A DNA stretch of 24,828 nt from a virus. Its lineage: Duplodnaviria > Caudoviricetes. The DNA lies in IMG/VR virus record IMGVR_UViG_3300006751_000124, positions 1 to 24,828 of that record; one strand, given 5' to 3'. Shown here piece after piece: positions 5,945 through 24,828 of the stretch. The notes under the pieces are model-generated. The model was given only the letters and a program-made list of their open reading frames with translations, was not told the origin of the DNA and searched no databases. Numbering within the stretch: the first letter of the stretch is position 1; the number at the start of each line of letters is the position of its first letter. The position numbers were made by a program, and so were the translations under genes.

Positions 5945-5973
5945 TTGATTTGGCGAAATAGGCATTATAATAT
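5945..5973 (+). promoter_or_regulatory. sigma70-like promoter for rmlA, probably leaderless
   Basis: TTGATT (5945-5950), 17 bp, TAATAT (5968-5973), then 6 nt to ATG 5980; an overlapping TATAAT lies at 5966-5971. Confidence 0.45.
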
Positions 5974-5979
5974 AAATAT

Positions 5980-6843
5980 ATGAAGGGCATCATATTAGCT
6001 GGAGGTACAGGATCTAGAGTGTATCCTAGTACAAAAACAGTCTCAAAGCAGCTGTTACCAATTTACGATAAGCCTACTATCTATTATCCTCTATCGACTT
6101 TAATAAGATTAGGAATAAAGGATATAATGATTATTACAAATGCTCAAGCGTATCCTCATTTGTTGCATTTGTTTAATCAAACAGATAAACCACGACCATA
6201 TCTAGGTCTTAATATTACATTTAAAATACAAATGTCACCAGCTGGTATAGCAGAGGCATTAATTATTGCGGAAGGTTGGCAAGGAGATGATAATATATGT
6301 TTAATTTTAGGGGATAATATTTTTACTGGTATAAAGAAACCAAAACTTAATGGCAATAAAGCTTGTGTTGTGAGTTATAAAGTTTCAAACCCAAGCGATT
6401 ATGGTGTTATAGAGCTTGATGCAACTGATACAATAGTTTCTATAGAAGAAAAACCAGATGTTCCTCCTAGTAATTTAGCTGTTACAGGTATTTATTTTTA
6501 TGATAATACAGCTGGAGAACGAGCACGTAGATTGGAACCATCAGAGAGAGGCGAATTAGAAATTACTGATTTAAATAAAAGTTATTTACAAGATAATGTA
6601 CTAGGTCACAGTAGTTTAAATAGTAATTATGCATGGTTTGATACTGGAAATCCAGATGAAATGTTCGCTGCATCGATGTATGTTAAGTCTATACAAGATA
6701 GAACTAATACAATGATTGGATGTATTGAGGGAGAAGCATATAAACAAGGGTTTATCACATATGACCAATTTATAAAAATTAAAGATAAAATGCCTATGTG
6801 CTCATATACGACTAATTTAGTTATGAGTTATTGCTTTGATTAA
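5980..6843 (+). CDS. rmlA: glucose-1-phosphate thymidylyltransferase
   Basis: MKGIILAGGTGSRVYP, SKQLLPIYDKP.IYYPLSTL, LILGDNIF, IEEKP, RGELEITD and AWFDTG. Confidence 0.95.
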   Translation: MKGIILAGGTGSRVYPSTKTVSKQLLPIYDKPTIYYPLSTLIRLGIKDIMIITNAQAYPHLLHLFNQTDKPRPYLGLNITFKIQMSPAGIAEALIIAEGWQGDDNICLILGDNIFTGIKKPKLNGNKACVVSYKVSNPSDYGVIELDATDTIVSIEEKPDVPPSNLAVTGIYFYDNTAGERARRLEPSERGELEITDLNKSYLQDNVLGHSSLNSNYAWFDTGNPDEMFAASMYVKSIQDRTNTMIGCIEGEAYKQGFITYDQFIKIKDKMPMCSYTTNLVMSYCFD

Positions 6844-9155: not shown

Positions 9156-10547
9156 ATGAACAGCAGAGATTTAAACTCTATTAATGAAGCCTTTGTGCAA
9201 GCTACGGCAAAGGTAGTTGCTGAAGATACTATCGAAGAAGCGAGACCACCGATTGGTGCGGCAGCCCGGGAAGGTGATCCAGTGAAACAGAAAACAAAAC
9301 CATGGACTGGTTCTTCGAAAACAAAAAATAGTGGCAAGAAGGCGAACCCCCCCGGTAGGCCAAAGCCAAATGACAAAGAAGAGGATGACGAGATAGAAGA
9401 GGTGAAGGAAGATCTTGGTCCGGATTTTGGTGATGAACAAGATTTTGGTGATCCTTCTCGTCATAGCGGTGACTATTTAGATGATGAGCCATTAGATGTC
9501 GGAGATATAGTAGAGGTTGAGGGTGAAGACGATGACTTCGTAGTTCTTGATCTTGATGGAGAGTACGTGAATTTAGCTGCTGTTAGGGATGCAATTGAAG
9601 TTAAACGATCCTCAGTTGTAAAACGGGAGTCAGTTAAAGTAGAGAAAAAGTTAGTTACATTAAAAGAAAAAAAGAAAGTTATGAAGTATACAGATATAAT
9701 GGATGAGTATGAAAGTCGGCTATCGACAAGCTCTAGAGGATTTTCACTAAAATCTAAACTAAATGAAGAAGATGGAACTTCATTCAAACAACCAGATGAA
9801 GGTGTTGGAGTGAAGGTAGATGACAAGACACAACGCCCAAAAGATGAAGCTAGCGCAGAGGTAGTTGAGGAGCCAACGGAAAATGTAAAGGATGATTTAC
9901 AGGAGCCTAAAGAAGGAGAAGAAAAAAATACCAAAAAAGAAGAGAAAGTTGTAGAGGATAGTATAAATAATTCTAACAAAGGTAATATTATGTCACAAGA
10001 TAAATCAATTTTTGATAAGCTCTATGAGCAAGTTATGAGTGAGGACGATGATTTCGAACTCGGTGTCCCAGGTGATGGACTCGGCGCAGTCGGTGATGAG
10101 CTCGGAGACGAGATCGGAGATGAAGGCGGCGAAGATGTCACTGTAACATTAAGCCCGGATCAAGTCGATGCTCTTAAGGCAGTAGTTGATCAATTTCCAT
10201 CACCGGAAGATGATCTCGGTGGTGAGGATGAATTCGGTGGCGATGAAGAGGAGCCTGAAGAAGGCTTCCGGCGCGAGAGCACTGAAACCGTTGCCGAGGG
10301 AGACGAGCAGTCTACCGGGAAGCCAACTACAGATGGTGCCAAGCCAGGTGTTGATCCTTCCGATGGTGGAGGTAAGTCTACTGATGTTGCAGCTGATAGC
10401 CTAGGTGGTAAGTCATCTGGTACAGGTGATGCAAAGGTTACTGACGATCCTGCCTCAACTGGGAAACCAACTACAGACGGTAGTAAGCCTGGTGTTGCAA
10501 AGAATTCAGGGAAACCTGGTAAGCAGAAAGCTAACGCTAAGATCTAA
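9156..10547 (+). CDS. acidic low-complexity protein; probable prohead core/scaffold or internal head protein
   Basis: 463 aa, very D/E/G/K-rich; late promoter upstream and terminator downstream; several (I/L/V)xE sites of the type cut by T4 gp21; SH3/KOW-like segment LDVGDIVEVEG..FVVLDLDGEYVNL. Confidence 0.55.
   Translation: MNSRDLNSINEAFVQATAKVVAEDTIEEARPPIGAAAREGDPVKQKTKPWTGSSKTKNSGKKANPPGRPKPNDKEEDDEIEEVKEDLGPDFGDEQDFGDPSRHSGDYLDDEPLDVGDIVEVEGEDDDFVVLDLDGEYVNLAAVRDAIEVKRSSVVKRESVKVEKKLVTLKEKKKVMKYTDIMDEYESRLSTSSRGFSLKSKLNEEDGTSFKQPDEGVGVKVDDKTQRPKDEASAEVVEEPTENVKDDLQEPKEGEEKNTKKEEKVVEDSINNSNKGNIMSQDKSIFDKLYEQVMSEDDDFELGVPGDGLGAVGDELGDEIGDEGGEDVTVTLSPDQVDALKAVVDQFPSPEDDLGGEDEFGGDEEEPEEGFRRESTETVAEGDEQSTGKPTTDGAKPGVDPSDGGGKSTDVAADSLGGKSSGTGDAKVTDDPASTGKPTTDGSKPGVAKNSGKPGKQKANAKI
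9962..9992 (+). promoter_or_regulatory. internal late promoter, SD-like site and in-frame ATG
   Basis: TATAAATA (9962-9969)-ATTCTAAC-AAAGG-TAATATT-ATG (9990, in frame with 9156). Confidence 0.55.
10311..10496 (+). repeat. two copies of a 14-aa coding repeat STGKPTTDG(A/S)KPGV
   Basis: Copies at 10311-10352 and 10455-10496; 13 of 14 aa identical, with synonymous divergence. Confidence 0.85.
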
Positions 10548-13055: not shown

Positions 13056-13535
13056 ATGGCAACACAAGCAGAATTACAAAAAGCAGTAGACGATACAACA
13101 GCAGTAGCATCGGCAGCCAGGGGTGCCTGGAAAGAAGCGATCCCAAGCGAAGATGCCCCGAAGATGACTGATGACGAACAAGCTGTAGTCGATGATCTTG
13201 AAGCGAAATTTCTTGCTGCTAAAGCCGCTCGTAAAGCCGCGGAGCGTGAACTCGCTGATGCTGTCGCTCAGGCTGCCGCAGATGCTGCCGCCGTTGAGGC
13301 TAGTGAAAAGGCTAAAAAGGAGGCCGAAGAGGCGGCTGCTGCAAAAGCTGCTGCGGACGCTGCTCTTGCGAAAAAAGTTGCTGCTGAGGCTGGTACTCCA
13401 GTTGGTTCATCTGATAAATTTTCGGAGTTAGATAAAAAGTGGATTTTAGAAATTGCTGGGCCTAAGGGATTAACTGATAAAGCGTGGCGTGATGAGATTG
13501 CAGGGCCTCGGCCAGAGGGATGGACGGCGGGTTAA
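13056..13535 (+). CDS. Ala/Glu/Lys-rich coiled-coil protein with tandem C-terminal motif
   Basis: 159 aa; AAAKAAADAALAKK helix; DKxWxxEIAGP twice; TAAATA at 13039-13044 upstream. Confidence 0.75.
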   Translation: MATQAELQKAVDDTTAVASAARGAWKEAIPSEDAPKMTDDEQAVVDDLEAKFLAAKAARKAAERELADAVAQAAADAAAVEASEKAKKEAEEAAAAKAAADAALAKKVAAEAGTPVGSSDKFSELDKKWILEIAGPKGLTDKAWRDEIAGPRPEGWTAG

Positions 13536-14560: not shown

Positions 14561-14738
14561 CTACTGGTCGAACATCAACTATATGCTTTGTAACAAATTG
14601 GCCGGTGTGAGGATCAGTATAATGCGCTTCTGTACGTATCTCATTACCCATTCGAACTTCTCTCATTACAGGGGTAATTGAATTACCCGCAGGTCCCTGA
14701 ATAATATTAGGATTCTTTTTTAATTCTCTGTTTTGCAT
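14547..14738 (-). CDS. hypothetical protein
   Basis: 63 aa filling the gap between rnh and primase, overlapping both; AGAAGG upstream. Confidence 0.65.
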   Translation of the reverse strand: MQNRELKKNPNIIQGPAGNSITPVMREVRMGNEIRTEAHYTDPHTGQFVTKHIVDVRPVDEAK

Positions 14739-15628
14739 TTTTTAATCGCCTTCTTAATAATATTTATTATATTTTCGTTATTATTAAATGACTCTCGCCA
14801 TGAAGAATAGTTTCTCACAATAGACCACATATTTAATTTTTTTGCTTCTTCTATAAATTTATTATAATTACTTTTATTGTTTTTGCAATTATTTAATTGT
14901 TCTTCGTATACAGGTACTTCATCCGGATAATAATCATAACCAATTGACAGATCCATTAATTGTAAATTTCTTTCATAAATGGTTTGTTGCTCTTCTGTTA
15001 ATTTAGTTAAGTCTAATTTTTTAAATCGTGCTAATCCGTATTTAGGTATACCAGGTATATTATCAGATTTATCGCCTGTTACTGCTCTATAGTTTAAATA
15101 TTGATCTTTAGACACACCCGTATATTCTTCAAAATTTTGTAATGTAACTATTTTCTTTTTTATAGGGCTATAAATTTTAGTATCGACGGATATTGTTTGT
15201 AGTAAATCTTTATCGGTTGTTACTATAACATTTTGTCCAGAGAGATGAGATGCTAACCAGGCCATTAAATCATCAGCTTCCATTCTAAGCGGATACATAT
15301 TGTGTACACCTAATAAAGAAATAATTTCTTGTATTTTCTCTGAGTATTCATGTACGTCTTTAAATTTATCATCATCCCTATTCGCTTTATATTCTACAGT
15401 GATAATTTCATTCCTGAAATTAGTAGAAGGCCATTCTAGCTTTTTATCCCAAGTACAATAAATTTCTTTTGATTGAAATTTATCTACATAAGATTTTAAG
15501 GATTGTAAAAATAGAAATACTTGTCCAGGACTGTTTGCTTCGTCTAATTTAAAATTATTAGTCCAGAAAATTCGATATAATAGATTGTTACCGTCTATTA
15601 TAAGATTATTTGCTCCACCATTTTTCAT
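14720..15628 (-). CDS. rnh: T4-type RNase H / 5'-3' exonuclease (FEN family)
   Basis: IIDGNNLLYR, YKANR, EADDL, TTDKDLLQ and GDKSDNIPGI. Confidence 0.92.
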   Translation of the reverse strand: MKNGGANNLIIDGNNLLYRIFWTNNFKLDEANSPGQVFLFLQSLKSYVDKFQSKEIYCTWDKKLEWPSTNFRNEIITVEYKANRDDDKFKDVHEYSEKIQEIISLLGVHNMYPLRMEADDLMAWLASHLSGQNVIVTTDKDLLQTISVDTKIYSPIKKKIVTLQNFEEYTGVSKDQYLNYRAVTGDKSDNIPGIPKYGLARFKKLDLTKLTEEQQTIYERNLQLMDLSIGYDYYPDEVPVYEEQLNNCKNNKSNYNKFIEEAKKLNMWSIVRNYSSWRESFNNNENIINIIKKAIKKCKTEN

Positions 15629-16613
15629 TTTTAATATACCACATTATAGTATATCTTAAATCATCGGCAAATGTTTTTTGAGTTTCAGAAAATTCTAATT
15701 GGGTACCAGCTTGAATCATCATACTTCTATACATTGTGTCTCTTAAACTATATCTAAGATCATGACCTTTTCTGTCTTCAACGTAGCTAATTAACCTTTT
15801 AGGTTTTTTCAAAATCGTCAAAATTATCTCTACAATTTCAATATTAGATATTTCTGAATGGTACTCTGAGTCAGGAGCGAGGTTATATATATTTCCTGCA
15901 TCTCCTTGCAGTAGTACGTTATATATTTTTTCGCAATGGTCTTTAACGTATATCCATTGACGTATGTTATTACCTTTTCCATATACAGGAATTTGTTCAT
16001 CATTATTAGCCTTGTACGCAATAACTGGAATAAATTTTTCGGAATATTGTCTAGGTCCGAAATTATTTGTACATCTTGTTATAATAATATCTTTTTTATA
16101 TGTTTTGTGGAAAGACAGTGCTAGTAAATCTGCTCCAGCTTTTGTTGCGGAATATACAGATGATGGTTCTAATAAATCGTATTCTTCGCTTGGTGAGGAA
16201 TTAAATTGTAGACTACCGTAAACTTCATCTGTACCTACTTGAAGAAATCTAGTGGTGTCAGGTAGTTGTTTTAGTAATTCATATACACCTACATAATTAC
16301 TATCGATAAAAACATCACCATCGGTGATGCTATTATCTACATGAGACTCTGCAGCGAAATTTACAATATAATCATATTCTTTATCTAATTTAAAATCTGA
16401 TATGGTTTCATATACTATATTTAGCTTATTACTATGTCCTGATGTGTGGTAGTATAAGTCATATAAATAATCTTCTGTTTTACGTGATACGCAGTAACTA
16501 TAACTATCTACTATGGTTATCTTACAATTTGTGCATTTATTATAAAGTAGCTCTATAAAGTGACTTCCAATAAAGCCCAAACCACCCGTTACTAATATAT
16601 TTTTATCTTTCAT
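15606..16613 (-). CDS. rmlB: dTDP-glucose 4,6-dehydratase
   Basis: LVTGGLGFIGS, NFAAESHVDNS, TDEVYG, YSATK, NNFGPRQ..EKFIP and DRKGHDLRY. Confidence 0.95.
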   Translation of the reverse strand: MKDKNILVTGGLGFIGSHFIELLYNKCTNCKITIVDSYSYCVSRKTEDYLYDLYYHTSGHSNKLNIVYETISDFKLDKEYDYIVNFAAESHVDNSITDGDVFIDSNYVGVYELLKQLPDTTRFLQVGTDEVYGSLQFNSSPSEEYDLLEPSSVYSATKAGADLLALSFHKTYKKDIIITRCTNNFGPRQYSEKFIPVIAYKANNDEQIPVYGKGNNIRQWIYVKDHCEKIYNVLLQGDAGNIYNLAPDSEYHSEISNIEIVEIILTILKKPKRLISYVEDRKGHDLRYSLRDTMYRSMMIQAGTQLEFSETQKTFADDLRYTIMWYIKNEKWWSK

Positions 16614-17491
16614 TCACTTAATATTCTAATTAAGGATTCTCTCTCTAGTGGCATATCTAGTCCGTGTGTTTTTAATTTTTCTGTCGAAAGAACACAATTA
16701 GATCTGTTGGCAACAATATGTTGTTTTAATTCATTATAATTAATAAGCTTCCAATTCGGGTTCCACATTCCGTACTTATCTAAGATTTGACAAACTTCAT
16801 TTGTTGAAAGAGGCTCAGGATTCACACAATTATAAATACCGCCCGGTAAGTCTTGAATGTTAATAATCTTATTAATCACGAGAAGTAGGTCTTCAATAAC
16901 AGTTTTAGAATTTACTTCATCGAGAATATTATTATATTTTAAGAGTTTACATAAGTAATTTTTTGACGCATTAAAGTCATTACAAACAGGCATTCTTATT
17001 CGAAGAGTATATACGTTGTTGTAATTACGTAAACATAGCTCTGCTGCGTGTTTTGTTTTACTGTACCAACTACTATCAGAGTTAAGTAATCCAAAATTAG
17101 GTTCATCTTCCTCTGTATAGAGTACATTTTCTGGACCGTCATATATACATCCTGAACTTACATTAATCAGTTTTATATCGTACTGTTTACAGAACTGAGC
17201 TAGAACGGTAGGAAATGTTACATTTAAATCCCAGCAGATTTGCTTATTTTCTTCACAAGCGTCTACATTTGGTTTTCCAGTATATCCAACACAATTAACT
17301 ATCCATTTAAGTTGTGATCCGCGAAACTCGGACAATAAGTTACTAAATAATGTTTCTTTTAAGCTTTCTGGTACATTATACTTGTAATCTGATAGGTGAA
17401 CTATATCATGTATATTTCCGATAGTATCAAAAAGATATCTATATGTCTTACTCCCTATGTAACCGTTTCCTAAAACAACTATCTTATTCAT
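16610..17491 (-). CDS. NDP-4-keto-6-deoxyglucose 3,5-epimerase/4-reductase (UER1/NRS-ER-type, RmlD superfamily)
   Basis: G.GYIG, GYTGKPNVDACE, GCIYD, EEDEPNF, SWYSKTK, TLRIRMP, KNYLCKL..Y, GIYN.VNP and ANRSNCVL match the plant UER1 / giant-virus bifunctional subfamily signature (GxTGRPNVDWCE, TLRVRMP, PRSNNEL). Confidence 0.8.
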   Translation of the reverse strand: MNKIVVLGNGYIGSKTYRYLFDTIGNIHDIVHLSDYKYNVPESLKETLFSNLLSEFRGSQLKWIVNCVGYTGKPNVDACEENKQICWDLNVTFPTVLAQFCKQYDIKLINVSSGCIYDGPENVLYTEEDEPNFGLLNSDSSWYSKTKHAAELCLRNYNNVYTLRIRMPVCNDFNASKNYLCKLLKYNNILDEVNSKTVIEDLLLVINKIINIQDLPGGIYNCVNPEPLSTNEVCQILDKYGMWNPNWKLINYNELKQHIVANRSNCVLSTEKLKTHGLDMPLERESLIRILSE

Positions 17492-17774
17492 TTGTATTTG
17501 TTTGTTCTTGTACGTCTCTAAAAAAGTCTACTCCCGCAACGCGTCTTAATAATGTTTCTATAGCGTCGTAATCTTGAGGTGTTTTACCAGAGACCATTAC
17601 TACACTTTCTCCTTTAAGATCATATCCTAGTAGTATAAATGATTTTAAATGCTCTCCGAGATAGTCAGTAATAAACGACATATCCTGTTCTTCTATCTCA
17701 GCTGGTTCGACGGCATTAATACTGGACTTTAATAAATTATCGAAATTTTTAGATTTAGGAATTGTCTTTTTCAT
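17484..17774 (-). CDS. hypothetical protein
   Basis: 96 aa, overlapping both neighbours in the run. Confidence 0.7.
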   Translation of the reverse strand: MKKTIPKSKNFDNLLKSSINAVEPAEIEEQDMSFITDYLGEHLKSFILLGYDLKGESVVMVSGKTPQDYDAIETLLRRVAGVDFFRDVQEQTNTNE

Positions 17775-18063
17775 TAGGCATTATATCTTTTTCGATTAAT
17801 TTAGTCATAATAACTTCCATACTATCTGTTTTTAACTGAAAGTTTTTAAATCGACTACCGTCATTTAGTTCAAATTTAAAATCTTCAGTCCAGTCGTAAT
17901 TAACATAACAAGTTATATATAAAGCGTTTGTTTGTGGGTTGAGCATTACTGTCCAGCGTCTAGGGTCTTCAGTGGTATACTCGGAGAAAATCCTATTTAC
18001 TGTATACCCATTATCCCTTAATCGCTTAATAAAATACCCGCAAGTTGTGACTTTATTTTTCAT
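17755..18063 (-). CDS. hypothetical protein
   Basis: 102 aa, coupled to the clamp gene by a 1-bp stop/start overlap. Confidence 0.7.
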   Translation of the reverse strand: MKNKVTTCGYFIKRLRDNGYTVNRIFSEYTTEDPRRWTVMLNPQTNALYITCYVNYDWTEDFKFELNDGSRFKNFQLKTDSMEVIMTKLIEKDIMPNEKDNS

Positions 18064-18794
18064 TAGTTTTTATAACTAGTACTAACAAACGTGAGGTCGC
18101 TGTCTTTAAGTTCTAGTTTAATCATAAGCATTTTATATTCATTATTTATATAAATTATAGCTTCGGAAAAACTCAATACAGATATAAGTCTAAATAGTTC
18201 TACGTCTAAAATTAGCTCGTAATCTAATTTATCTCCATCATATTCCTCAGCGAGTATTGTAGTGTAACTATCTACGTTTTGTAGTTTTTTATCTGATAAT
18301 TCAGCATATACGTTTGTATTTTCAGTCTTAAGATATACTTTACTTGATTCGGTGACAAACGGTAATGCTTTTAATATTGCATTATTTTTTTCTTTTGTAA
18401 GTTTAAAATTAGTGTTAAATGTAATATCGTCTATTTTATTAAAATCAAATGCAGTATTTTTAGTTATACTACTATCAAATAAATGATATTTAAATCTATT
18501 AAACTTATCATTATATGTAATACTGTTTTCCTCTACTTTAAGGCGTATATCAGCTTCATCTAAGCATGATAAAATTTTAATTAATTTAACTGTATCCGGT
18601 AAACATATAATATTGTCTTGAGGGTGATCATCCCAACTGACTTTATATTCTGCTTTAAGAAAAATGTTAGAATTATTATGAACAATAGTAGATATATTAT
18701 TGCTTATATCTAGTGTCACCGCTGAATCTAATCTCGAGACCGGATTAAGAAAATTTTGAATAAAATTATCTTTATTCTTTATTGGTAGAATCAT
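18063..18794 (-). CDS. gp45: DNA polymerase sliding clamp, gp45-like
   Basis: 243 aa; ICLPDTVKLIKILSCLDEADI...ITY...RFKYHLFDSSI resembles the gp45 pattern IYDLNxFLxxLSLxxD...KYxxADPS; replication context. Confidence 0.6.
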   Translation of the reverse strand: MILPIKNKDNFIQNFLNPVSRLDSAVTLDISNNISTIVHNNSNIFLKAEYKVSWDDHPQDNIICLPDTVKLIKILSCLDEADIRLKVEENSITYNDKFNRFKYHLFDSSITKNTAFDFNKIDDITFNTNFKLTKEKNNAILKALPFVTESSKVYLKTENTNVYAELSDKKLQNVDSYTTILAEEYDGDKLDYELILDVELFRLISVLSFSEAIIYINNEYKMLMIKLELKDSDLTFVSTSYKN

Positions 18795-19161
18795 TATTTT
18801 CGTTTAATTTGATTCGTATATTAATTTCTTTTGCGTTTTTTGCAACTCTCCGTTCAATTAAAGTTATGAATTTAGTAAATTGTTTTTCAACAGCAGAGAC
18901 CCGCTCTATTAAACTATTCAATAGAGCAGGGTCTCCTGTAATTTGCGGTTGAGGAGCAACAGGTTGAGAAAGAGCAACCTGTTGTTGATGTACTGGTTGT
19001 TGCTGTTGTGGGACTGAGTGACGCGCTGGTTGCTTATATATATCCTTTTGTATAGGAATATCATTCATTGTAGCACTCTTTTGAACAATATCTCTGTTCA
19101 AGCCATGTGCTTGTTTATTCATATCATGAATAGCTAACTTTACTGCGTCTTCGTCGGTCAT
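18772..19161 (-). CDS. hypothetical protein (Gln/Pro-rich linker, coiled coil)
   Basis: 129 aa between gp32 and the clamp gene. Confidence 0.7.
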   Translation of the reverse strand: MTDEDAVKLAIHDMNKQAHGLNRDIVQKSATMNDIPIQKDIYKQPARHSVPQQQQPVHQQQVALSQPVAPQPQITGDPALLNSLIERVSAVEKQFTKFITLIERRVAKNAKEINIRIKLNENNDSTNKE

Positions 19162-19163
19162 CT

Positions 19164-20024
19164 TTATTCTAGAGTATCAAGAAGCTCTTTAACTTTATCA
19201 TCATCAATAGTAGACGATTTAGAGTCACCTTTTGATGTAGATTCTAAATCATCAAAAGGTATATCATCTTCTTCTTCAGCAGGCGGCTTTGTTGATTGTT
19301 TCTGTACGGGCTCTGTTACTGAATCTTCTGTAACTCCGTGGTAGTGCTCGGTAAGCATTGTCTGTAACTCGTCATAGCTTTTGACTGGGAAAACATTTTC
19401 TAGATCAAATGTTTGATCATAAACATCTTTAATAGTATTATCCGTTACTCCTGAGATTTGAGAAGGACTAGCGAAGCGAGAGCTTACGTATGTCGGATAT
19501 CCTCCTTGCTCTTCAACTTTAACTCGAAAACTACAACCTTCACTCGAGAGGTCAAAAATCTTCTCACCGAACTCGTCAGCGTCTTCTCCCTCCATTGCTT
19601 CCATTACAATTTTATGCAACTGACGACCAAAGCGAAGAATTTTTACCTTACCTTCATTTTCAGGATTATCAGGATCCTTTACTACATAAACATTAACAAG
19701 CCAATTTTCTTTACGGTTTAAAGCTTTTGCCTTTTCTTTTTCTTCTTCAGAACCGGTACGAGAGAGTCTATATCGAGCCTCTGCAATAGGATCTCTTTCT
19801 CCCCATGTCTGCGGGCTAATCGCGCTTTGAAATTGCCCGGTCATTTCACTTACCCAACCGTGTGAATAATAATGAAAGAACGTTTTACTAGGATCCTTTA
19901 CGAACGGTACAAGCCGTAATATATATGTATTACCTGGCTTTAGTCGCATAATATTACTAGTTGACGTTTGTTGCGCGGTCTGAGCCATCGCTCCTCTAAT
20001 TGATTCAAACATATTTGTTGTCAT
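19164..20024 (-). CDS. gp32: single-stranded DNA-binding protein
   Basis: LRLVP, HYYSHGW, GERDPI, NVYVVKDPDNPENEGKVKILRFG, FDLSSEGCSFRVKV, YPTYVSSRF and an acidic tail. Confidence 0.93.
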   Translation of the reverse strand: MTTNMFESIRGAMAQTAQQTSTSNIMRLKPGNTYILRLVPFVKDPSKTFFHYYSHGWVSEMTGQFQSAISPQTWGERDPIAEARYRLSRTGSEEEKEKAKALNRKENWLVNVYVVKDPDNPENEGKVKILRFGRQLHKIVMEAMEGEDADEFGEKIFDLSSEGCSFRVKVEEQGGYPTYVSSRFASPSQISGVTDNTIKDVYDQTFDLENVFPVKSYDELQTMLTEHYHGVTEDSVTEPVQKQSTKPPAEEEDDIPFDDLESTSKGDSKSSTIDDDKVKELLDTLE

Positions 20025-20662
20025 TTTCTTTTTAATATTTTATTTATAGTATTAGTTAATTTTATTCCCAAAGGTTTGAGTTTTTTCGAAAATGTATATT
20101 TCGATCTCAAACTACTCAACGTATTATAGAAGCTATTACATGCAAATTCAACTATATTTTTTTCTAGCTTAATATTTTTTTCTGATATATCGAGAGACAA
20201 CAAGGAATAGTAATTAATATCATTATTTTTTAGATCTAGAATAAAATTAGGATATATTCCCGACTGTATGTCGAGGTATTCGTCACATCTTGTTAAATTA
20301 TGTTCAATACACATACCATAAATAAATTTAAAGCTATTTCTTAATCTAGTAATATTAAATTCATGATCAGGTTTTGTTAATTCTATATCTGTTGTGTATT
20401 TTTTATATGTAGAAATAGCGTTAAATGTACTATAAAAATCAAGCGGTACATATTTTTCTGAATATAATTTATATGGTGCATTAAAAAATATAATCGGATC
20501 TATTTTTTTATTTCTTAAAGTATTTGATATTTTCTTAAGTATAACGTATTTTGTATCGTCTAGTTTTTTAAAATCTTTTCGAGGAGTAAACCCCTTTTTA
20601 TCTCTAGAAGTTTTAAGATAAATATTATATATATTTTTCTCAAACACTGATAGGTTATTCAT
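20021..20662 (-). CDS. probable helicase loader, gp59-like
   Basis: 213 aa, basic, immediately upstream of gp32 as in T4; IYNIYL, FKKLDDTKYVILKKIS, AISTYKKY and LKNNDINYYSLLSLD loosely match gp59 segments. Confidence 0.5.
   Translation of the reverse strand: MNNLSVFEKNIYNIYLKTSRDKKGFTPRKDFKKLDDTKYVILKKISNTLRNKKIDPIIFFNAPYKLYSEKYVPLDFYSTFNAISTYKKYTTDIELTKPDHEFNITRLRNSFKFIYGMCIEHNLTRCDEYLDIQSGIYPNFILDLKNNDINYYSLLSLDISEKNIKLEKNIVEFACNSFYNTLSSLRSKYTFSKKLKPLGIKLTNTINKILKRK
20041..20048 (-). promoter_or_regulatory. possible late promoter for gp32
   Basis: Perfect TATAAATA 16 nt before ATG 20024. Confidence 0.5.
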
Positions 20663-20937
20663 AAATCTATAGAATTCTTTTTAAGGTATTTTGTTATATA
20701 TTTACTTTTATATAGATATGGATCGTGTTGTAGAAATATTTTTACTAATCCGAAATTATTATCTATTAATAATGCCCTTTTAAACAGTTCTCTATATTTC
20801 TCTTCTTTTAGAACTACTAAAAATACATTTGCGAGGTTAATCTTTCTATTCTCACAAATAGAAACAAAACTACATAATGTTAGAAAAGTATGTACAATAT
20901 CTTTTCGTTCTAAAATTGTGTATGGACTATCTGTCAT
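20659..20937 (-). CDS. hypothetical protein (occupies the T4 gp33 position)
   Basis: 92 aa helical protein upstream of gp59-like; the gp33 link is positional only. Confidence 0.6.
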   Translation of the reverse strand: MTDSPYTILERKDIVHTFLTLCSFVSICENRKINLANVFLVVLKEEKYRELFKRALLIDNNFGLVKIFLQHDPYLYKSKYITKYLKKNSIDL

Positions 20938-21829
20938 TTTTATTTAGAGGTTCAAATTGTTTACTTAAAGAAAGTACATTATCATTTAATATACCACCAG
21001 CTGCATATTCATGTCCGCCACCGTCACATATTTTCTTAGCGAATTTACTTAAATTAAAATCAATATTTCTATTTCTGCGTAAATATACTCTGTTATTTTT
21101 TAAATTAATCATCATACATACATCACACTTATAATTATCAACAATATATTGTCCAAGATCATTAACATATTCATTAGCAAAAGTACTAATAAAATTATAT
21201 TCTTTTCCTGCTATCGAGAGCTTTGCTTTATATAGATCTATATTATCTCTCATTTTTTTGAATCTATAGAAATGATAGCTGATTATTTTATTTTGTTCAT
21301 TAGTAAAGCCGAAGAACCCATTTTCAAAATCATTAATAAAATTTTGTAATTTATCACCGTTTTTATACCAAAGATAAAAGTTTAATTTATTACTTTCAGG
21401 ATATTTTAATTCATAACAATCATAATCGTTAGCAAATGTAATTAGCTTTTTCTGTTCCCTGGTTAAATTTACGTCTGGATATATGTGATTGAATATTTGA
21501 TATAAATGCTTACTGCATGACGGTTGGTTTACATCGATATATGTTTTAGCAAATGAATAATCATCTTCATGGGATTTGTGATGATCAAAAATAAGTACGT
21601 TGGGTTTATCTATTAAATCTTTAATCTCTGTAGTGTCTAAGTCAAAGAAATATACCCTTTTATAATCTTCAATTTTATTGTAATTAAGCCAACCTAATAT
21701 TTTCTCACGTATGTTAGATACTTTTAATGTTATAGCTTTTGGCTTGGCTTGTTTAAACCATGTATAAATTAAATAACTACAGCAACCGTCGAGATCTAAG
21801 TCTGTAAAAATTATTTCATTCTTGGACAT
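20927..21829 (-). CDS. DHH/DHHA1-family phosphoesterase
   Basis: Motifs TDLDLDG, FFDL, FDHH, NDYD and C-terminal GGGHEYAAGG. Confidence 0.9.
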   Translation of the reverse strand: MSKNEIIFTDLDLDGCCSYLIYTWFKQAKPKAITLKVSNIREKILGWLNYNKIEDYKRVYFFDLDTTEIKDLIDKPNVLIFDHHKSHEDDYSFAKTYIDVNQPSCSKHLYQIFNHIYPDVNLTREQKKLITFANDYDCYELKYPESNKLNFYLWYKNGDKLQNFINDFENGFFGFTNEQNKIISYHFYRFKKMRDNIDLYKAKLSIAGKEYNFISTFANEYVNDLGQYIVDNYKCDVCMMINLKNNRVYLRRNRNIDFNLSKFAKKICDGGGHEYAAGGILNDNVLSLSKQFEPLNKNDR

Positions 21830-21838
21830 TATTTATAT

Positions 21839-23185
21839 TTACAATACTCTCCCGAATTGTACAGCATCGTTTTCCGCAGTATTTACATCTTCGTTAATAT
21901 TTAAATCATTATTTTCTGTAAGTGTAAGAGTGTTATAGTCTATAGAGACTCGAGTGCTCCCTGTATTGGAACCAAATCTATTTTTAATAATGCCGATATG
22001 AAGCGCATCATCTTCTTCATCTTCTTCCGTTCTCCAAATACTTACAATAACATCTGAAGTGGCTCCTAATCCATAACTTTCTCCAATAGCTTCTAATCCA
22101 GGACCATTGGTAGTGTTTCCATAACCTGTTCTATTTACTTGTGTAGCGGTAATGATAGGACATTCAAATGTATATGACATTGCTCTCACTTGTTCAGAAA
22201 TACTCTTAACACGCTCATACGAATTATTACCATATGTACTTGCTAGGAGATTTAAATAATCAAGAACTATAATATCAGGTTTAAATTTCTTATTTATTAA
22301 TTTTTTAATATACCCTTCAAGTTGTGGAGGTGTAATAGAACTCGGAGCAAATTCTTTAATTATCATATTAGCTCGTGGATGAGTCATTTTAAATTTACCT
22401 ACACTTTCTCTTAATTCTTCTACATGATCATGTAAATAGTTTATAGGTAAACCGGTGAGCTTTGATGTAATCCTTTTACAATAAATCATTTCTGACATTT
22501 CAAGAGAAACGACTAAAACATTTTTACCTTCTGCTGCTGCATTGCTTGCAATATTACTTAAAAATATAGACTTACCCACATTAGTAGGTCCGGCGAATAC
22601 ATACATACTACGACCTTGTTCTAAGAAACCACCACCAAGTCTAGAATCTAACCAATCCCATCCTGTTTTAATTTTTTCTTCCCGGGTTGTCAAGTCAGTA
22701 ATATGTTGCTCAACATCTTTAAAATAATTATGACCTACATTAGTAGTAATAGAAATATTACATGCCTTTGAAAATTTGTCATGAATACTTTTTATATCTC
22801 TCTCTTTATTATCAACAATTTCTAAAAATGTATTAAATACGGCTTGCTCTTGTAAGAACCTCTCTGTATAAGAAAGTAATATGTCATTAGATAATTCTAC
22901 TTCTAGAGTGTTAGTAATCTTCTTACTTGCTTGATAATGATCTTTAAGCTGCGGTGTGTTTAAATATAATTCTAATTCAGTGTGAGTAGGTCGTCTATTG
23001 TTTTTTCGATAGAGAGCCTGTATGATTTTAATTATTTGTTTAAAGTCTTTATTTTTAAAGAATTTATAATTAAGATTATCAATAATAGAAGTTAGATAAA
23101 TTTCATCTTCAAGACAATTCTTAAAAACTACCTTTTCTAAATATTCTAAATCTATATCTAAATAATTACTTTCGTTTGTCAGCAT
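21839..23185 (-). CDS. gp41: replicative DnaB-family helicase
   Basis: Walker A GPTNVGKS, SLEMSE, IKEF, IVLDYLNL, TATQVNR.G, ESYG..ATSD and KNRFG. Confidence 0.95.
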   Translation of the reverse strand: MLTNESNYLDIDLEYLEKVVFKNCLEDEIYLTSIIDNLNYKFFKNKDFKQIIKIIQALYRKNNRRPTHTELELYLNTPQLKDHYQASKKITNTLEVELSNDILLSYTERFLQEQAVFNTFLEIVDNKERDIKSIHDKFSKACNISITTNVGHNYFKDVEQHITDLTTREEKIKTGWDWLDSRLGGGFLEQGRSMYVFAGPTNVGKSIFLSNIASNAAAEGKNVLVVSLEMSEMIYCKRITSKLTGLPINYLHDHVEELRESVGKFKMTHPRANMIIKEFAPSSITPPQLEGYIKKLINKKFKPDIIVLDYLNLLASTYGNNSYERVKSISEQVRAMSYTFECPIITATQVNRTGYGNTTNGPGLEAIGESYGLGATSDVIVSIWRTEEDEEDDALHIGIIKNRFGSNTGSTRVSIDYNTLTLTENNDLNINEDVNTAENDAVQFGRVL

Positions 23186-23867
23186 GTTCTAACAGAGTAT
23201 TATAGAAGTATTCTTCTGAATTGCTATAACTTTCTGTGTGGTTGAGCAAGCCAGGAGATTCGTGAATGACATGAATAGGAGCTGTAGTTAAACGTAAACC
23301 AGCTAAATGACAATCTAAACAAAATTTTAAATCATAATGATGAAAACCTTTAAGGTTATTATCAAATTTTATTTTCTTCTTTGCAATTGATTTAGTTCGA
23401 ATAGCTAAAAATACACCATCTAATAATACCACTTCTTTTGGTGTTGCACCAAATATTGTGGGAGAGTAGTCTGTATTATTTTGATAATGTGATACTATTC
23501 CAGATAGGGAGTCTGGTTTACACAATAAATGCCATAGGCAAGGTTTTTTAACTTGTAGTTTACTTCCACCTGCTAGACCTACTACATCAAACCCTTGTTT
23601 AAACAAATTACGGATCTCTACTAAAAAATTTATACTATCAATAAACACATCATCGTGTACGAATAGAATACAATCATATTTTTTAAAGTTTTCTGGTGTA
23701 AGATAATTATTGTAAACATCACACAACCCGCTAGTATTTTTATATGTAGGTTGAAGATCAAACGTAGTTATAGTGTTTTCTTCGTGATGTTGCAAGCTTT
23801 TAGATAATCTAGAATTTAAAAACTCTGCACTCGTAGCTTGTGTAGCGACTGCTATTAAAGTTTTCAT
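23166..23867 (-). CDS. GT-A fold glycosyltransferase (GT2-like, Glyco_tranf_2_5-type)
   Basis: GL..VYN, FVHDDV (DxD-type motif), VVGLAG, LDGVFLA, FD...GFHHYDL.FCL and VIH.S.G. Confidence 0.8.
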   Translation of the reverse strand: MKTLIAVATQATSAEFLNSRLSKSLQHHEENTITTFDLQPTYKNTSGLCDVYNNYLTPENFKKYDCILFVHDDVFIDSINFLVEIRNLFKQGFDVVGLAGGSKLQVKKPCLWHLLCKPDSLSGIVSHYQNNTDYSPTIFGATPKEVVLLDGVFLAIRTKSIAKKKIKFDNNLKGFHHYDLKFCLDCHLAGLRLTTAPIHVIHESPGLLNHTESYSNSEEYFYNTLLEHADKRK

Positions 23868-24505
23868 AAAAAGAATGGTGTCATGTTTAGTTCAAATTCT
23901 TCTTCTTTATTAAAGGTATTATTAGTAAAATTATAAATCAGAACAGTACCTTCAGTTATATCTTTATATTCATCACTCACTTGAATCGAACTAAAATCCC
24001 CACCGTTACTAAATAGTGTAGAGCCTGATCTAAATATACGTAATTCTGCATGGTCGGTGTCATAGTACCAGCAACCAAATGTTCCTTGTAGCGCAGAGAT
24101 TGCGTCATTAAATCCTATTTTTTCTATTAAGGGTAAAATCACATTACTATCTACTTTACATTTAATATCTAAATTATACTCTTGTATTAATTCTTCATGA
24201 TTAGATAGTACGCCATTATGTGCTATGTATCTATTTTTAAAACTAAACGGGTGAGAAGTCTCTATATTAAAGTCTCGAACGTTGGATGTTGGTGACTGTA
24301 CGTGACCTAGGTAATATATACAGAAAGGGTTTTCTTCTATATGCTTATCAAAATCTTGTTCATATTTTGTTGACACACGAATATCATTTTTCATCCCACC
24401 GGGGAATAGCATTGTCACGCTACGTACAAAGTTTCCTCTTTCAGAGTTTTTTGTATATAGCTCTCTAAACGTCTTAATATTGTTTGATCCAAAAATTCCA
24501 CACAT
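23864..24505 (-). CDS. stand-alone class II (Ntn) glutamine amidotransferase
   Basis: MCGIFG (catalytic Cys after Met removal), ERG, GHVQSPT, HPF, AHNGVL.N, VDS and LQGTF; no synthase domain. Confidence 0.85.
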   Translation of the reverse strand: MCGIFGSNNIKTFRELYTKNSERGNFVRSVTMLFPGGMKNDIRVSTKYEQDFDKHIEENPFCIYYLGHVQSPTSNVRDFNIETSHPFSFKNRYIAHNGVLSNHEELIQEYNLDIKCKVDSNVILPLIEKIGFNDAISALQGTFGCWYYDTDHAELRIFRSGSTLFSNGGDFSSIQVSDEYKDITEGTVLIYNFTNNTFNKEEEFELNMTPFFL

Positions 24506-24507
24506 AG

Positions 24508-24828
24508 TTATTTTAATTGTATGAACTCCGCTTTACTTAGGCAACTTAAATCTTTGCAACCAGCATATGAAACAGAGCTCTTAAGAGCCTTTTCAATTTC
24601 TCTTAATCTAATATTATATTCCGGTGCTAATTCTATTTCTATTTGTTTACCTTCAACAAAATTTAATTTATTTCTTTTTTGAGTATATGATGTACTACCG
24701 TAGTATTGTTTATGTCCGTTAATATGTTTTGCAGGAGAGTCAATACAACCTGCAAAAAAAGATCCAGCCATTACACAATCTGCTCCAGCAACTAAAGCCT
24801 TTGCAATATCTCCAAATTCTTTACATCC
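24508..24828 (-). CDS. guaC: GMP reductase (Bacillus-type), 3' part; 5' end lies outside the window
   Basis: Frame open to the window edge: GCKEFGDIAKALVAGADCVMAGSFFAG..DSP...KQYYGSTSYTQK...VEGK...LKSSVSYAG. IMPDH/GMPR fold; the short flap best fits GuaC. Confidence 0.8.
   Translation of the reverse strand, partial: GCKEFGDIAKALVAGADCVMAGSFFAGCIDSPAKHINGHKQYYGSTSYTQKRNKLNFVEGKQIEIELAPEYNIRLREIEKALKSSVSYAGCKDLSCLSKAEFIQLK

Follow-up and report, generated by a model that had tools for sequence, protein, structure and literature searches.

Why would a T4-like phage keep genes for rhamnose synthesis and a glycosyltransferase among its replication genes, and where does the sugar go? The window analysed here, a stretch of 24,828 nucleotides from the Caudoviricetes record IMGVR_UViG_3300006751_000124, had been interpreted from its letters alone as a candidate system for rhamnosylating phage DNA. 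Pieces of known systems explain the block best, not a new DNA sugar mark. We propose that one T4-like replication operon houses two unrelated systems, a QueC-linked pathway to fdPreQ1 and a rhamnose kit with a core glycosyltransferase (GT) for virion-protein glycans (probability roughly 0.52). The clade is widespread, uncultured and T4-like, and its likely hosts are Verrucomicrobia or other PVC bacteria. The argument refers to the following features:

5945..5971, plus strand: putative promoter-like site of rmlA, early/middle-type (TTGA box; -10 hexamer 14 nt 5' of the ATG)
5980..6843, plus strand: rmlA-like glucose-1-phosphate nucleotidyltransferase (PF00483, E 6e-52; TIGR01207, 289 bits, below the cut-off of 361)
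14720..15628, minus strand: rnh, RNase H / 5'-3' exonuclease (PF02739, E 4e-25)
15606..16613, minus strand: rmlB-like NDP-glucose 4,6-dehydratase (TIGR01181, 312 bits, below the cut-off of 365)
16610..17491, minus strand: NRS/ER (UER)-type bifunctional 3,5-epimerase/4-reductase (PF04321; best PDB match 4QQR)
18063..18794, minus strand: putative sliding clamp (synteny conserved)
19164..20024, minus strand: gp32-like ssDNA-binding protein (PF08804, E 3e-21)
21839..23185, minus strand: gp41/DnaB-like replicative helicase (PF03796; phrog_19, E 5e-78)
23166..23867, minus strand: GT-A-fold glycosyltransferase, majastridin-like (PF13712, E 1e-12)
23864..24505, minus strand: stand-alone class-II glutamine amidotransferase (PF13522)
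24508..24828, minus strand: guaC (GMP reductase), 3' part (complete gene in L001, best model PRK05458)

An ORF check of the window bore out all the reading frames of the sequence-only reading, with their order and positions, including the 20-bp overlap of the GT with the helicase start, the ATGA coupling of the amidotransferase to the GT, and the 3' part of guaC just upstream of the amidotransferase. The rmlB and epimerase-reductase genes do sit where they had been placed, between the clamp-proximal genes and rnh, but the clamp label comes only from size and position, and that ORF gave no match in Pfam or PHROG profile searches. Gene overlap as a sign of special GT-helicase coupling was rejected, since overlaps are the rule along this run of minus-strand genes (11 of 13 junctions). 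The rmlA gene is inserted amid tail and terminase genes.

By homology, RmlA, RmlB and the bifunctional epimerase-reductase are predicted to form a complete route from Glc-1-P to NDP-L-rhamnose, in agreement with the earlier claim. From what is known of these families, the three enzymes would make the sugar nucleotide without RmlC, which was found in none of five genomes searched (positive control positive in 11/14). The epimerase-reductase matches the Arabidopsis NRS/ER structure 4QQR (E 1.3e-38) and 7JID (E 2e-20), with RmlD structures at E 6e-6 or weaker, and the Y-x3-K catalytic pair, Y143 and K147, is invariant in 15 homologs. The kit is bacterial-type. Its trio has a cellular counterpart in Verrucomicrobia, the UER-rmlB-rmlA cassette, with rmlA and rmlB no more than 4 kb apart in 38 of the 45 loci that have full flanks. 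Relatives of the phage often lack the rml genes in the replication block or carry them elsewhere, as in G044, where the trio lies ~65 kb from the GT. The complete trio occurs in three of seven near-complete relatives and the GT-A in all seven. Hosts can supply NDP-rhamnose, so loss of phage rml genes does not exclude a rhamnosyltransferase; equally, the donor of the GT-A need not be rhamnose. PMC6024577 was set aside: in its matching passages, rhamnose appears only as a standard.

The absence of a base-activating enzyme, as first reported, holds for the window but not beyond it. A proposed search for DpdA and QueC in the rest of the genome found queC directly before guaC in G001, a contig that shares 99.97% identity with the window (TIGR00364 above cut-off), and both DpdA3 and QueC in G002, a complete relative with ~81% nucleotide identity. 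G002 encodes FolE, two copies of QueD, QueE (recognized only by sub-cut-off models), QueC, QueF, DpdN and DpdA3. Its DpdA3 shares 46% identity with the DpdA3 of Flavobacterium phage immuto_2-6A (92% of the query aligned, E 9e-56), its DpdN (PF00551 formyltransferase) is 40% identical over 186 columns, and the gene order dpdA3-dpdN-kinase-queF is common to both phages. In immuto_2-6A, dG is reported to be replaced by fdPreQ1 (bioRxiv 10.1101/2023.04.13.536721). DpdA3 occurs in 6/7 near-complete relatives and has DpdN beside it in 16 of 19 loci; in some relatives (for example, G009) a GNAT takes the place of the adjacent DpdN. Modification of the phage's DNA is very likely, and the predicted base is formyl-preQ1, a formyl-capped 7-deazaguanine replacing guanine. 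Based on family knowledge, FolE, QueD, QueE and QueC would produce preQ0, QueF would reduce it, DpdA3 would exchange the base into DNA, and DpdN would formylate the amine of the side chain, after which a sugar would find no free handle. One point against our preferred explanation is that DpdA3, DpdN and QueF are known from relatives; the window's own 45-kb contig ends short of the DpdA3 locus and contains only queC of the pathway. Dinucleotide frequencies in G002 are flat (0.92-1.06) and uninformative. Members of the clade may already be present in the supplementary genome tables of bioRxiv 10.1101/2023.04.13.536721 and 10.1101/2023.12.21.572611.

The amidotransferase, with conserved Cys2, H96-N97-G98 and D119, had been suggested as a possible helper in preparing the base that would receive the sugar. 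The enzyme tracks QueC and not the GT. In the slot between uvsX and the helicase, QueC and the amidotransferase are both present in 65 of 72 lineages and both absent from the other seven, five of which retain the GT; guaC is found in this slot in 7/72. Because of this exact co-variation the amidotransferase is likely the ammonia donor of QueC, and would supply it with ammonia for preQ0 synthesis. A complex prediction for the pair scored 0.18 against a mark of 0.32 and is counted neither for nor against this. Cultured homologs also follow queC, for example in a Schizotequatrovirus whose cluster includes QueF. That last arrangement also weighs against a rival reading, to which we give a slim chance, namely a split Gat-QueC, formed by QueC and this amidotransferase, that would make archaeosine (dG+) and not preQ1 derivatives. 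The domain class is the same, and fused Gat-QueC is reported to give dG+ in phage 9g (PMC10484667); however, a two-domain QueF and DpdN are both neighbours of DpdA3, as in the fdPreQ1 phage.

The GT scores 48.7 bits against PF13712 (cut-off 27) and its predicted structure is a GT-A fold (pLDDT 94.6). H71-D72-D73, D150, Y178-D179 and H202 are invariant in 68 homologs, and an acidic motif of the metal-binding kind is present; judged from sequence alone, the homologs have a median net charge of 0 and no conserved basic cluster. It is a core gene of the clade, lying upstream of the helicase in 73/73 helicase-anchored loci, and in a second lineage that has lost the helicase it remains near queC-amidotransferase. 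Apparent losses in L055/L056 and L229 were traced to an artefact of ORF calling and to a copy with a frameshift; in L231, a 39-kb fragment, the GT is truly missing. The synteny put forward for testing, of GT, amidotransferase, helicase and rmlB/UER, divides: the first three are strongly conserved together, but the rml linkage is often absent, GT and rhamnose genes co-occurring at the replication slot in 12/53 lineages. The GT is independent of both the rhamnose genes and the deazaguanine pathway. G042 (248 kb, estimated 100% complete) keeps both of the clade's core GTs and has no FolE, QueD, QueE, QueC, QueF, DpdN, DpdA3, amidotransferase, RmlA or RmlB. The second core GT lies beside the polymerase, outside the window, and both are kept in 7/7 near-complete genomes. 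This second GT is tentatively labelled GT-B / group 1 from Atlas names and from its 26% identity to a protein annotated as a glycosyltransferase; its nearest cultured homolog, at that identity, lies just before terminase in Streptomyces phage KimJongPhill, and a PDB profile search gave no match. For the GT-A, an alignment-based search of genome contigs returned no match and no cultured or cellular context. A link between PF13712 and spore-protein rhamnosylation loci was considered and dropped, as it was not found among the literature matches listed.

Could the GT nevertheless put rhamnose, or some other sugar, on phage DNA at the fork, using the side chain of the deazaguanine or a different base? 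Its fixed position beside the helicase speaks for this, and so does an early-type expression pattern; in T4, genes for DNA modification lie close to gp43, uvsX and gp41. GT-A-fold DNA glycosyltransferases are also known, with the motif R...DDD...EDY/F (bioRxiv 10.1101/2023.12.21.572611). However, compared by eye, the invariant columns of the phage GT (HDD, D150, YD and H202; no Arg is invariant) differ from that motif, and the GT had no tblastn match in 50,697 GenBank phage records. The cap predicted on the preQ1 amine would be added by DpdN or, in G009, by the GNAT. The seven near-complete genomes hold no route to hmC, hmU or 5hoC: ThyA-family hydroxymethylase (PF00303; control positive in 10/14 genomes), C5-methyltransferase (PF00145; control positive in 9/14) and PurZ were each found in 0/7, so that the suggested search for a hydroxymethylase or PurZ came back empty. 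The TET/JBP profile PF12851 matched in 0/5 genomes, with its positive control silent too, and no 2OG-Fe(II) family appeared in the 151 G002 and 119 G042 proteins scanned. In one sub-lineage, a PF10014 dioxygenase does precede the GT at a distance of two genes, but this family occurs in 1/16 genomes and not in G002, and G042 retains the GT with neither the deazaguanine pathway nor any hydroxymethylase. No paper among the literature matches listed describes rhamnosylated phage DNA or the GTs of this clade. With the amidotransferase tracking QueC, the predicted base capped by a formyl group and the rml genes often off the replication block, rhamnose on phage DNA is improbable. Slimmer still is the chance that the two core GTs put sugar on the DNA itself, at a canonical base or along the backbone; this would make a doubly modified genome, with full guanine replacement by DpdA3 and a glycan needing no hydroxylated base.

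Virion glycosylation, which the sequence-only reading had named in brackets as an alternative and which is predicted here from genes, fits better than sugar on DNA, and there is about an even chance that the rhamnose feeds virion-protein glycans. Relatives keep the transferase without the rhamnose kit, so the sugar is likely on virus-particle proteins. The original argument that no separate LPS-like island exists fails in G002, where GTs, together with cytidylyltransferases and methyltransferases, make up a glycan island of ~30 kb; in relatives, GT8, GT34-like, cytidylyltransferase and epimerase genes are also inserted into the replication operon. The soluble GT-A and the second core GT may start or extend a cytoplasmic glycan, which the variable GT islands could elaborate, the rhamnose kit perhaps merely topping up one donor sugar in some lineages. 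Against this stands the fixed place of the GT beside the helicase. Expression signals also seem adverse: the rmlA promoter-like pattern precedes 10 of 242 ORFs in G002, including those of DpdA3, dUTPase, gp43, QueD and RmlA, and the late TAAATA motif that precedes many virion genes is absent from rmlB, the reductase and the GT, so that their timing matches DNA metabolism. However, most glycan-island genes in G002 also lack the late motif, and the promoter test therefore cannot separate DNA from virion targets. The same early/middle appearance suits a further reading that leaves the deazaguanine part unchanged and would have rhamnose and GTs alter the surface of the infected host cell (LPS, capsule or proteins of the host) through host export machinery, for superinfection exclusion or grazing avoidance. 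Matching of the rml trio to the cellular Verrucomicrobia cassette and LPS-type GT8 and GT25 families in relatives favour it; yet no flippase, polymerase or O-antigen ligase family was present in 151 of ~243 G002 proteins scanned, and both core GTs are probably steadier across the near-complete genomes than a host-serotype trait would be. We regard host-surface remodelling as unlikely, though a reading to be taken seriously.

Replacement of guanine by formyl-preQ1, if it occurs as predicted, would bias restriction-, PCR- and long-read-based surveys. The amidotransferase, by tracking QueC exactly, becomes a candidate glutamine-to-ammonia subunit, and if the two core GTs start virion glycans, these myophages would glycosylate their particles much like giant viruses.

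Compared with known systems, the guanine pathway most resembles that of immuto_2-6A, all seven genes of which, as well as their dpdA3-dpdN-kinase-queF order, recur in G002; here, however, the genes are spread over three loci, with queC in the replication operon beside a stand-alone amidotransferase and guaC. DNA-glycosylating phages (T4 with alpha/beta-GT on hmC, RB69 and DLP3 with arabinosyl-5hoC, and those with TET-linked GT-A) share the T4-like backbone and the GTs beside polymerase or helicase, but the present clade has no ThyA-family hydroxymethylase, C5-methyltransferase or detectable TET, and its GT motif differs. Majastridin (PF13712; ORF6 of the Rhodobacter blasticus ATP-synthase operon) is the best fold match to the GT (Foldseek, 2QGI/2NXV, E 2e-12, TM 0.67, 18% identity), and the title of record 2QGI names a UDP complex; it is distant and gives no acceptor, the phage GT forming its own, mostly viral cluster. 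'Moraphages' also have core GTs (PMC12619734), and we do not equate them with this clade. Like viruses that glycosylate their own virions (mycobacteriophages, as cited in PMC12619734, chloroviruses and Mimivirus), the clade has several soluble GTs and NDP-sugar enzymes; here, however, glycosylation of the virion is a prediction, and the GT genes belong to replication operons and lack the late motif. The NRS/ER pathways of Arabidopsis (4QQR), Mimivirus (R141 and L780) and the Verrucomicrobia cassette likewise pair a bifunctional-type reductase with a 4,6-dehydratase and dispense with RmlC, several Verrucomicrobia loci even in the UER-then-rmlB order of the phage. In Mimivirus, the same pair of dehydratase and bifunctional enzyme is reported along with abundant rhamnose in the fibres (PMC4691112). 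Here, in contrast, the pathway is in a bacteriophage, with rmlA ~9 kb removed and a nucleotide that could be dTDP or UDP.

The window, a 24.8-kb contig of 33% GC, belongs to a T4-like myophage and carries tail tube, sheath, terminase, primase, gp32 and helicase genes. Every gene named in the sequence-only reading was found in place, and both the 20-bp overlap between the glycosyltransferase (GT) and helicase genes and the ATGA junction were verified. Overlaps are the rule here (11 of 13 junctions in the minus-strand run), so the GT/helicase overlap carries no functional weight. Two low-complexity ORFs, both higher in GC and with late-type motifs, lack a family match: 9156-10547 (463 aa, acidic) and 13056-13535 (159 aa, Ala-rich, 52% GC).

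Assigned to PF13712, the GT is of the GT-A type, and its closest fold is majastridin. All 73 helicase-anchored loci that could be scored have it upstream of the helicase (53 clusters; 80 loci were returned, of which 7 fell short of the required minimum of 1 kb of upstream DNA). The proposed GT-helicase synteny is therefore real. The GT stays in its slot in five clusters without QueC and the amidotransferase, and the converse occurs in one. A further glycosyltransferase lies outside the window, in the interval from gp46 to the polymerase:

L001:2332-3558, + strand, second GT, 408 aa

It has no Pfam match and is highly conserved (40-88% identity); both GTs occur in 7/7 genomes at least 88% complete. 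The 248-kb G042 retains both, the second relocated beside the GT-A, and lacks the deazaguanine genes, the amidotransferase, RmlA and RmlB; its rml-like content is one RmlD-like protein at 24%. Counting against independence, in a second lineage with a relocated helicase the GT remains three genes from queC-amidotransferase, though locus L385, with the same arrangement, is missing both of these genes. The GT is independent of its neighbouring genes and is a core gene of the clade. A DUF366 protein is also kept across the clade (L044:6027-6614 in G002; L422:7354-7914 in G042).

The best models for RmlA and RmlB are TIGR01207 and TIGR01181, both with scores under the cut-off. The reductase matches Arabidopsis NRS/ER (4QQR) at E 1e-38 and RmlD structures at E 6e-6 or weaker, and RmlC was found in none of five near-complete relatives tested. 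From these assignments we can soundly infer that NDP-L-rhamnose would be made by three enzymes. The genes are unevenly distributed. Among 53 GT-bearing clusters (86 loci) spanning the reductase/rmlB slot, both genes are present in 12, the reductase alone in 20 and neither in 21; one reductase call in this count is a weak 23% match. Among the seven genomes at least 88% complete, an RmlB-like gene occurs in five, the reductase in four, and RmlA, like the full trio, in three. The trio lies ~65 kb from the GT in the relative G044 and is scattered in G006.

The best 80 cellular-collection matches of the reductase, from a scan covering ~600 of some 1300 stretches, carry the labels Verrucomicrobia or a subgroup (71), Planctomycetota (4), Kiritimatiellia (2) and others (3, one a mis-binned phage contig). 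L437, labelled an archaeal MAG, is a fragment of the phage clade's replication operon and was probably mis-binned. In 38 of 45 fully flanked cellular loci rmlA and rmlB lie at most 4 kb away, frequently in the order reductase-rmlB-rmlA, and the window's reductase/rmlB pair looks like a piece of a Verrucomicrobia-type cassette inserted into the replication operon. In relatives the same operon also gains GT8, GT34-like, cytidylyltransferase, epimerase, carbamoyltransferase and haem-oxygenase genes; at L168:6541-7786, a haem oxygenase and a ferredoxin-dependent bilin reductase separate queC from the amidotransferase. The rhamnose kit is an accessory cassette of known type. We infer a PVC host, with which DUF1552, DUF2589 and prepilin-type genes in G002 (a complete relative of 200.8 kb with terminal repeats) are consistent; these we take to be associated taxonomically with PVC bacteria.

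The sequence-only reading proposed phage DNA as a possible target of the sugar, partly on the premise that no separate LPS-like island exists. G002 contradicts this premise with a glycan island at ~166-196 kb (GTs, cytidylyltransferases, methyltransferases and an aldolase), and no export or ligase families were found among the 151 of its ~243 proteins scanned. The GT is soluble, with a median net charge of 0 over 68 homologs, and its invariant residues are unlike the motif of known DNA GT-As. Together with the nearest cultured homologs of the second GT, which sit before terminase (Streptomyces phage KimJongPhill), Mimivirus, whose rhamnose-rich fibres accompany the same two-step route (PMC4691112), and the mycobacteriophage virion glycans cited in PMC12619734, these features favour a cytoplasmic glycan built on virion proteins, to which we give a probability of about 0.5. 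Because the host can supply NDP-rhamnose, this may be the GT's donor even where rml genes are missing. The gene observation behind DNA rhamnosylation was sound and its interpretation holds in part. Glycosylation of DNA by this GT is improbable; remodelling of the host surface by rhamnose or the GTs is a doubtful alternative, the likelier of these two.

Promoter-like motifs count against the virion glycan. TAAATA, a late motif, precedes 60 of 242 G002 ORFs by 9-19 nt, many of them structural, and is missing before rmlB, the reductase and the GT, while rmlA has an early-type promoter in common with DpdA3 and dUTPase. TAAATA starts 11-15 nt ahead of ATG in 50 cases among these ORFs, early -10 boxes lie 10-16 nt ahead of the start codon, and only 23 of the 242 have an SD-like word. 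Such close-to-start motifs, seen window-wide and in G002 (L034-L044), suggest mRNAs that are leaderless or have very short leaders.

The amidotransferase retains Cys2, HNG and Asp119, which are class-II features. Its best cultured-phage matches mostly adjoin queC, as in the Schizotequatrovirus cluster folE-dpdA-queF-queC-amidotransferase. Across 158 loci spanning uvsX to helicase (72 helicase clusters at 90% identity), QueC and the amidotransferase occur together in 65 clusters, neither in 7 and one alone in 0. Since QueC requires ammonia (PMC13082051), the likeliest role of the amidotransferase is that of its ammonia-donor subunit; the presence of QueF and DpdN makes it less likely that the two form a split Gat-QueC yielding archaeosine. 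One sub-lineage that carries the reductase, rmlA and rmlB together has a PF10014 2OG-Fe(II) dioxygenase (L102:2389-3021) in the interval from guaC to the amidotransferase; of 16 genomes tested, 1 had this family.

The base-activating system sought beyond the window is present in relatives, and is of an already known type. G001, a contig 99.97% identical to the window, extends further, with queC directly before guaC, then uvsX, the polymerase and the second GT. G002 (~81% nucleotide identity across the replication block) encodes FolE, two QueD, QueE, QueC, QueF, a PF00551 formyltransferase and a 272-aa protein. Among GenBank phages this protein matches only DpdA3, from the immuto phages of Flavobacterium (46%) and from Campylobacter phages (18 records). 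QueC and DpdA3 each occur in six of the seven genomes at least 88% complete; the suggested hydroxymethylase (ThyA family) and PurZ routes, like a C5-methyltransferase, are absent from all seven. The TET search among near-complete relatives had a silent positive control. ThyA and ThyX were both unseen in four genomes (G002, G007, G008 and G009); G002 nevertheless has dUTPase and dCMP deaminase, and ThyX is present in G006 and G042.

In some relatives with dpdA3 but no adjoining dpdN (G009), the genes after the amidotransferase encode a GNAT acetyltransferase and the PF18909 dATP/dGTP diphosphohydrolase (L158:8541-9354; L402:9137-9631), which suggests an acetyl-preQ1 variant in such relatives. 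In the L077/L345-L350 lineage kinase-queF is kept, a metallophosphoesterase occupies the usual dpdA3-dpdN position, the GT-A adjoins a baseplate gene ~5 kb from rmlA, and DpdA3 was not found within the fragments.

In phage immuto_2-6A, formyl-preQ1 (fdPreQ1) replaces dG and DpdN is the predicted formyltransferase (bioRxiv 10.1101/2023.04.13.536721). G002 shares that phage's dpdA3-dpdN-kinase-queF order, and the DpdN of G002 is 40% identical to its counterpart there. Gene content predicts a DNA modification that adds a new case to the DpdA3/fdPreQ1 system; its product would have the amine capped and the hydroxyl absent.
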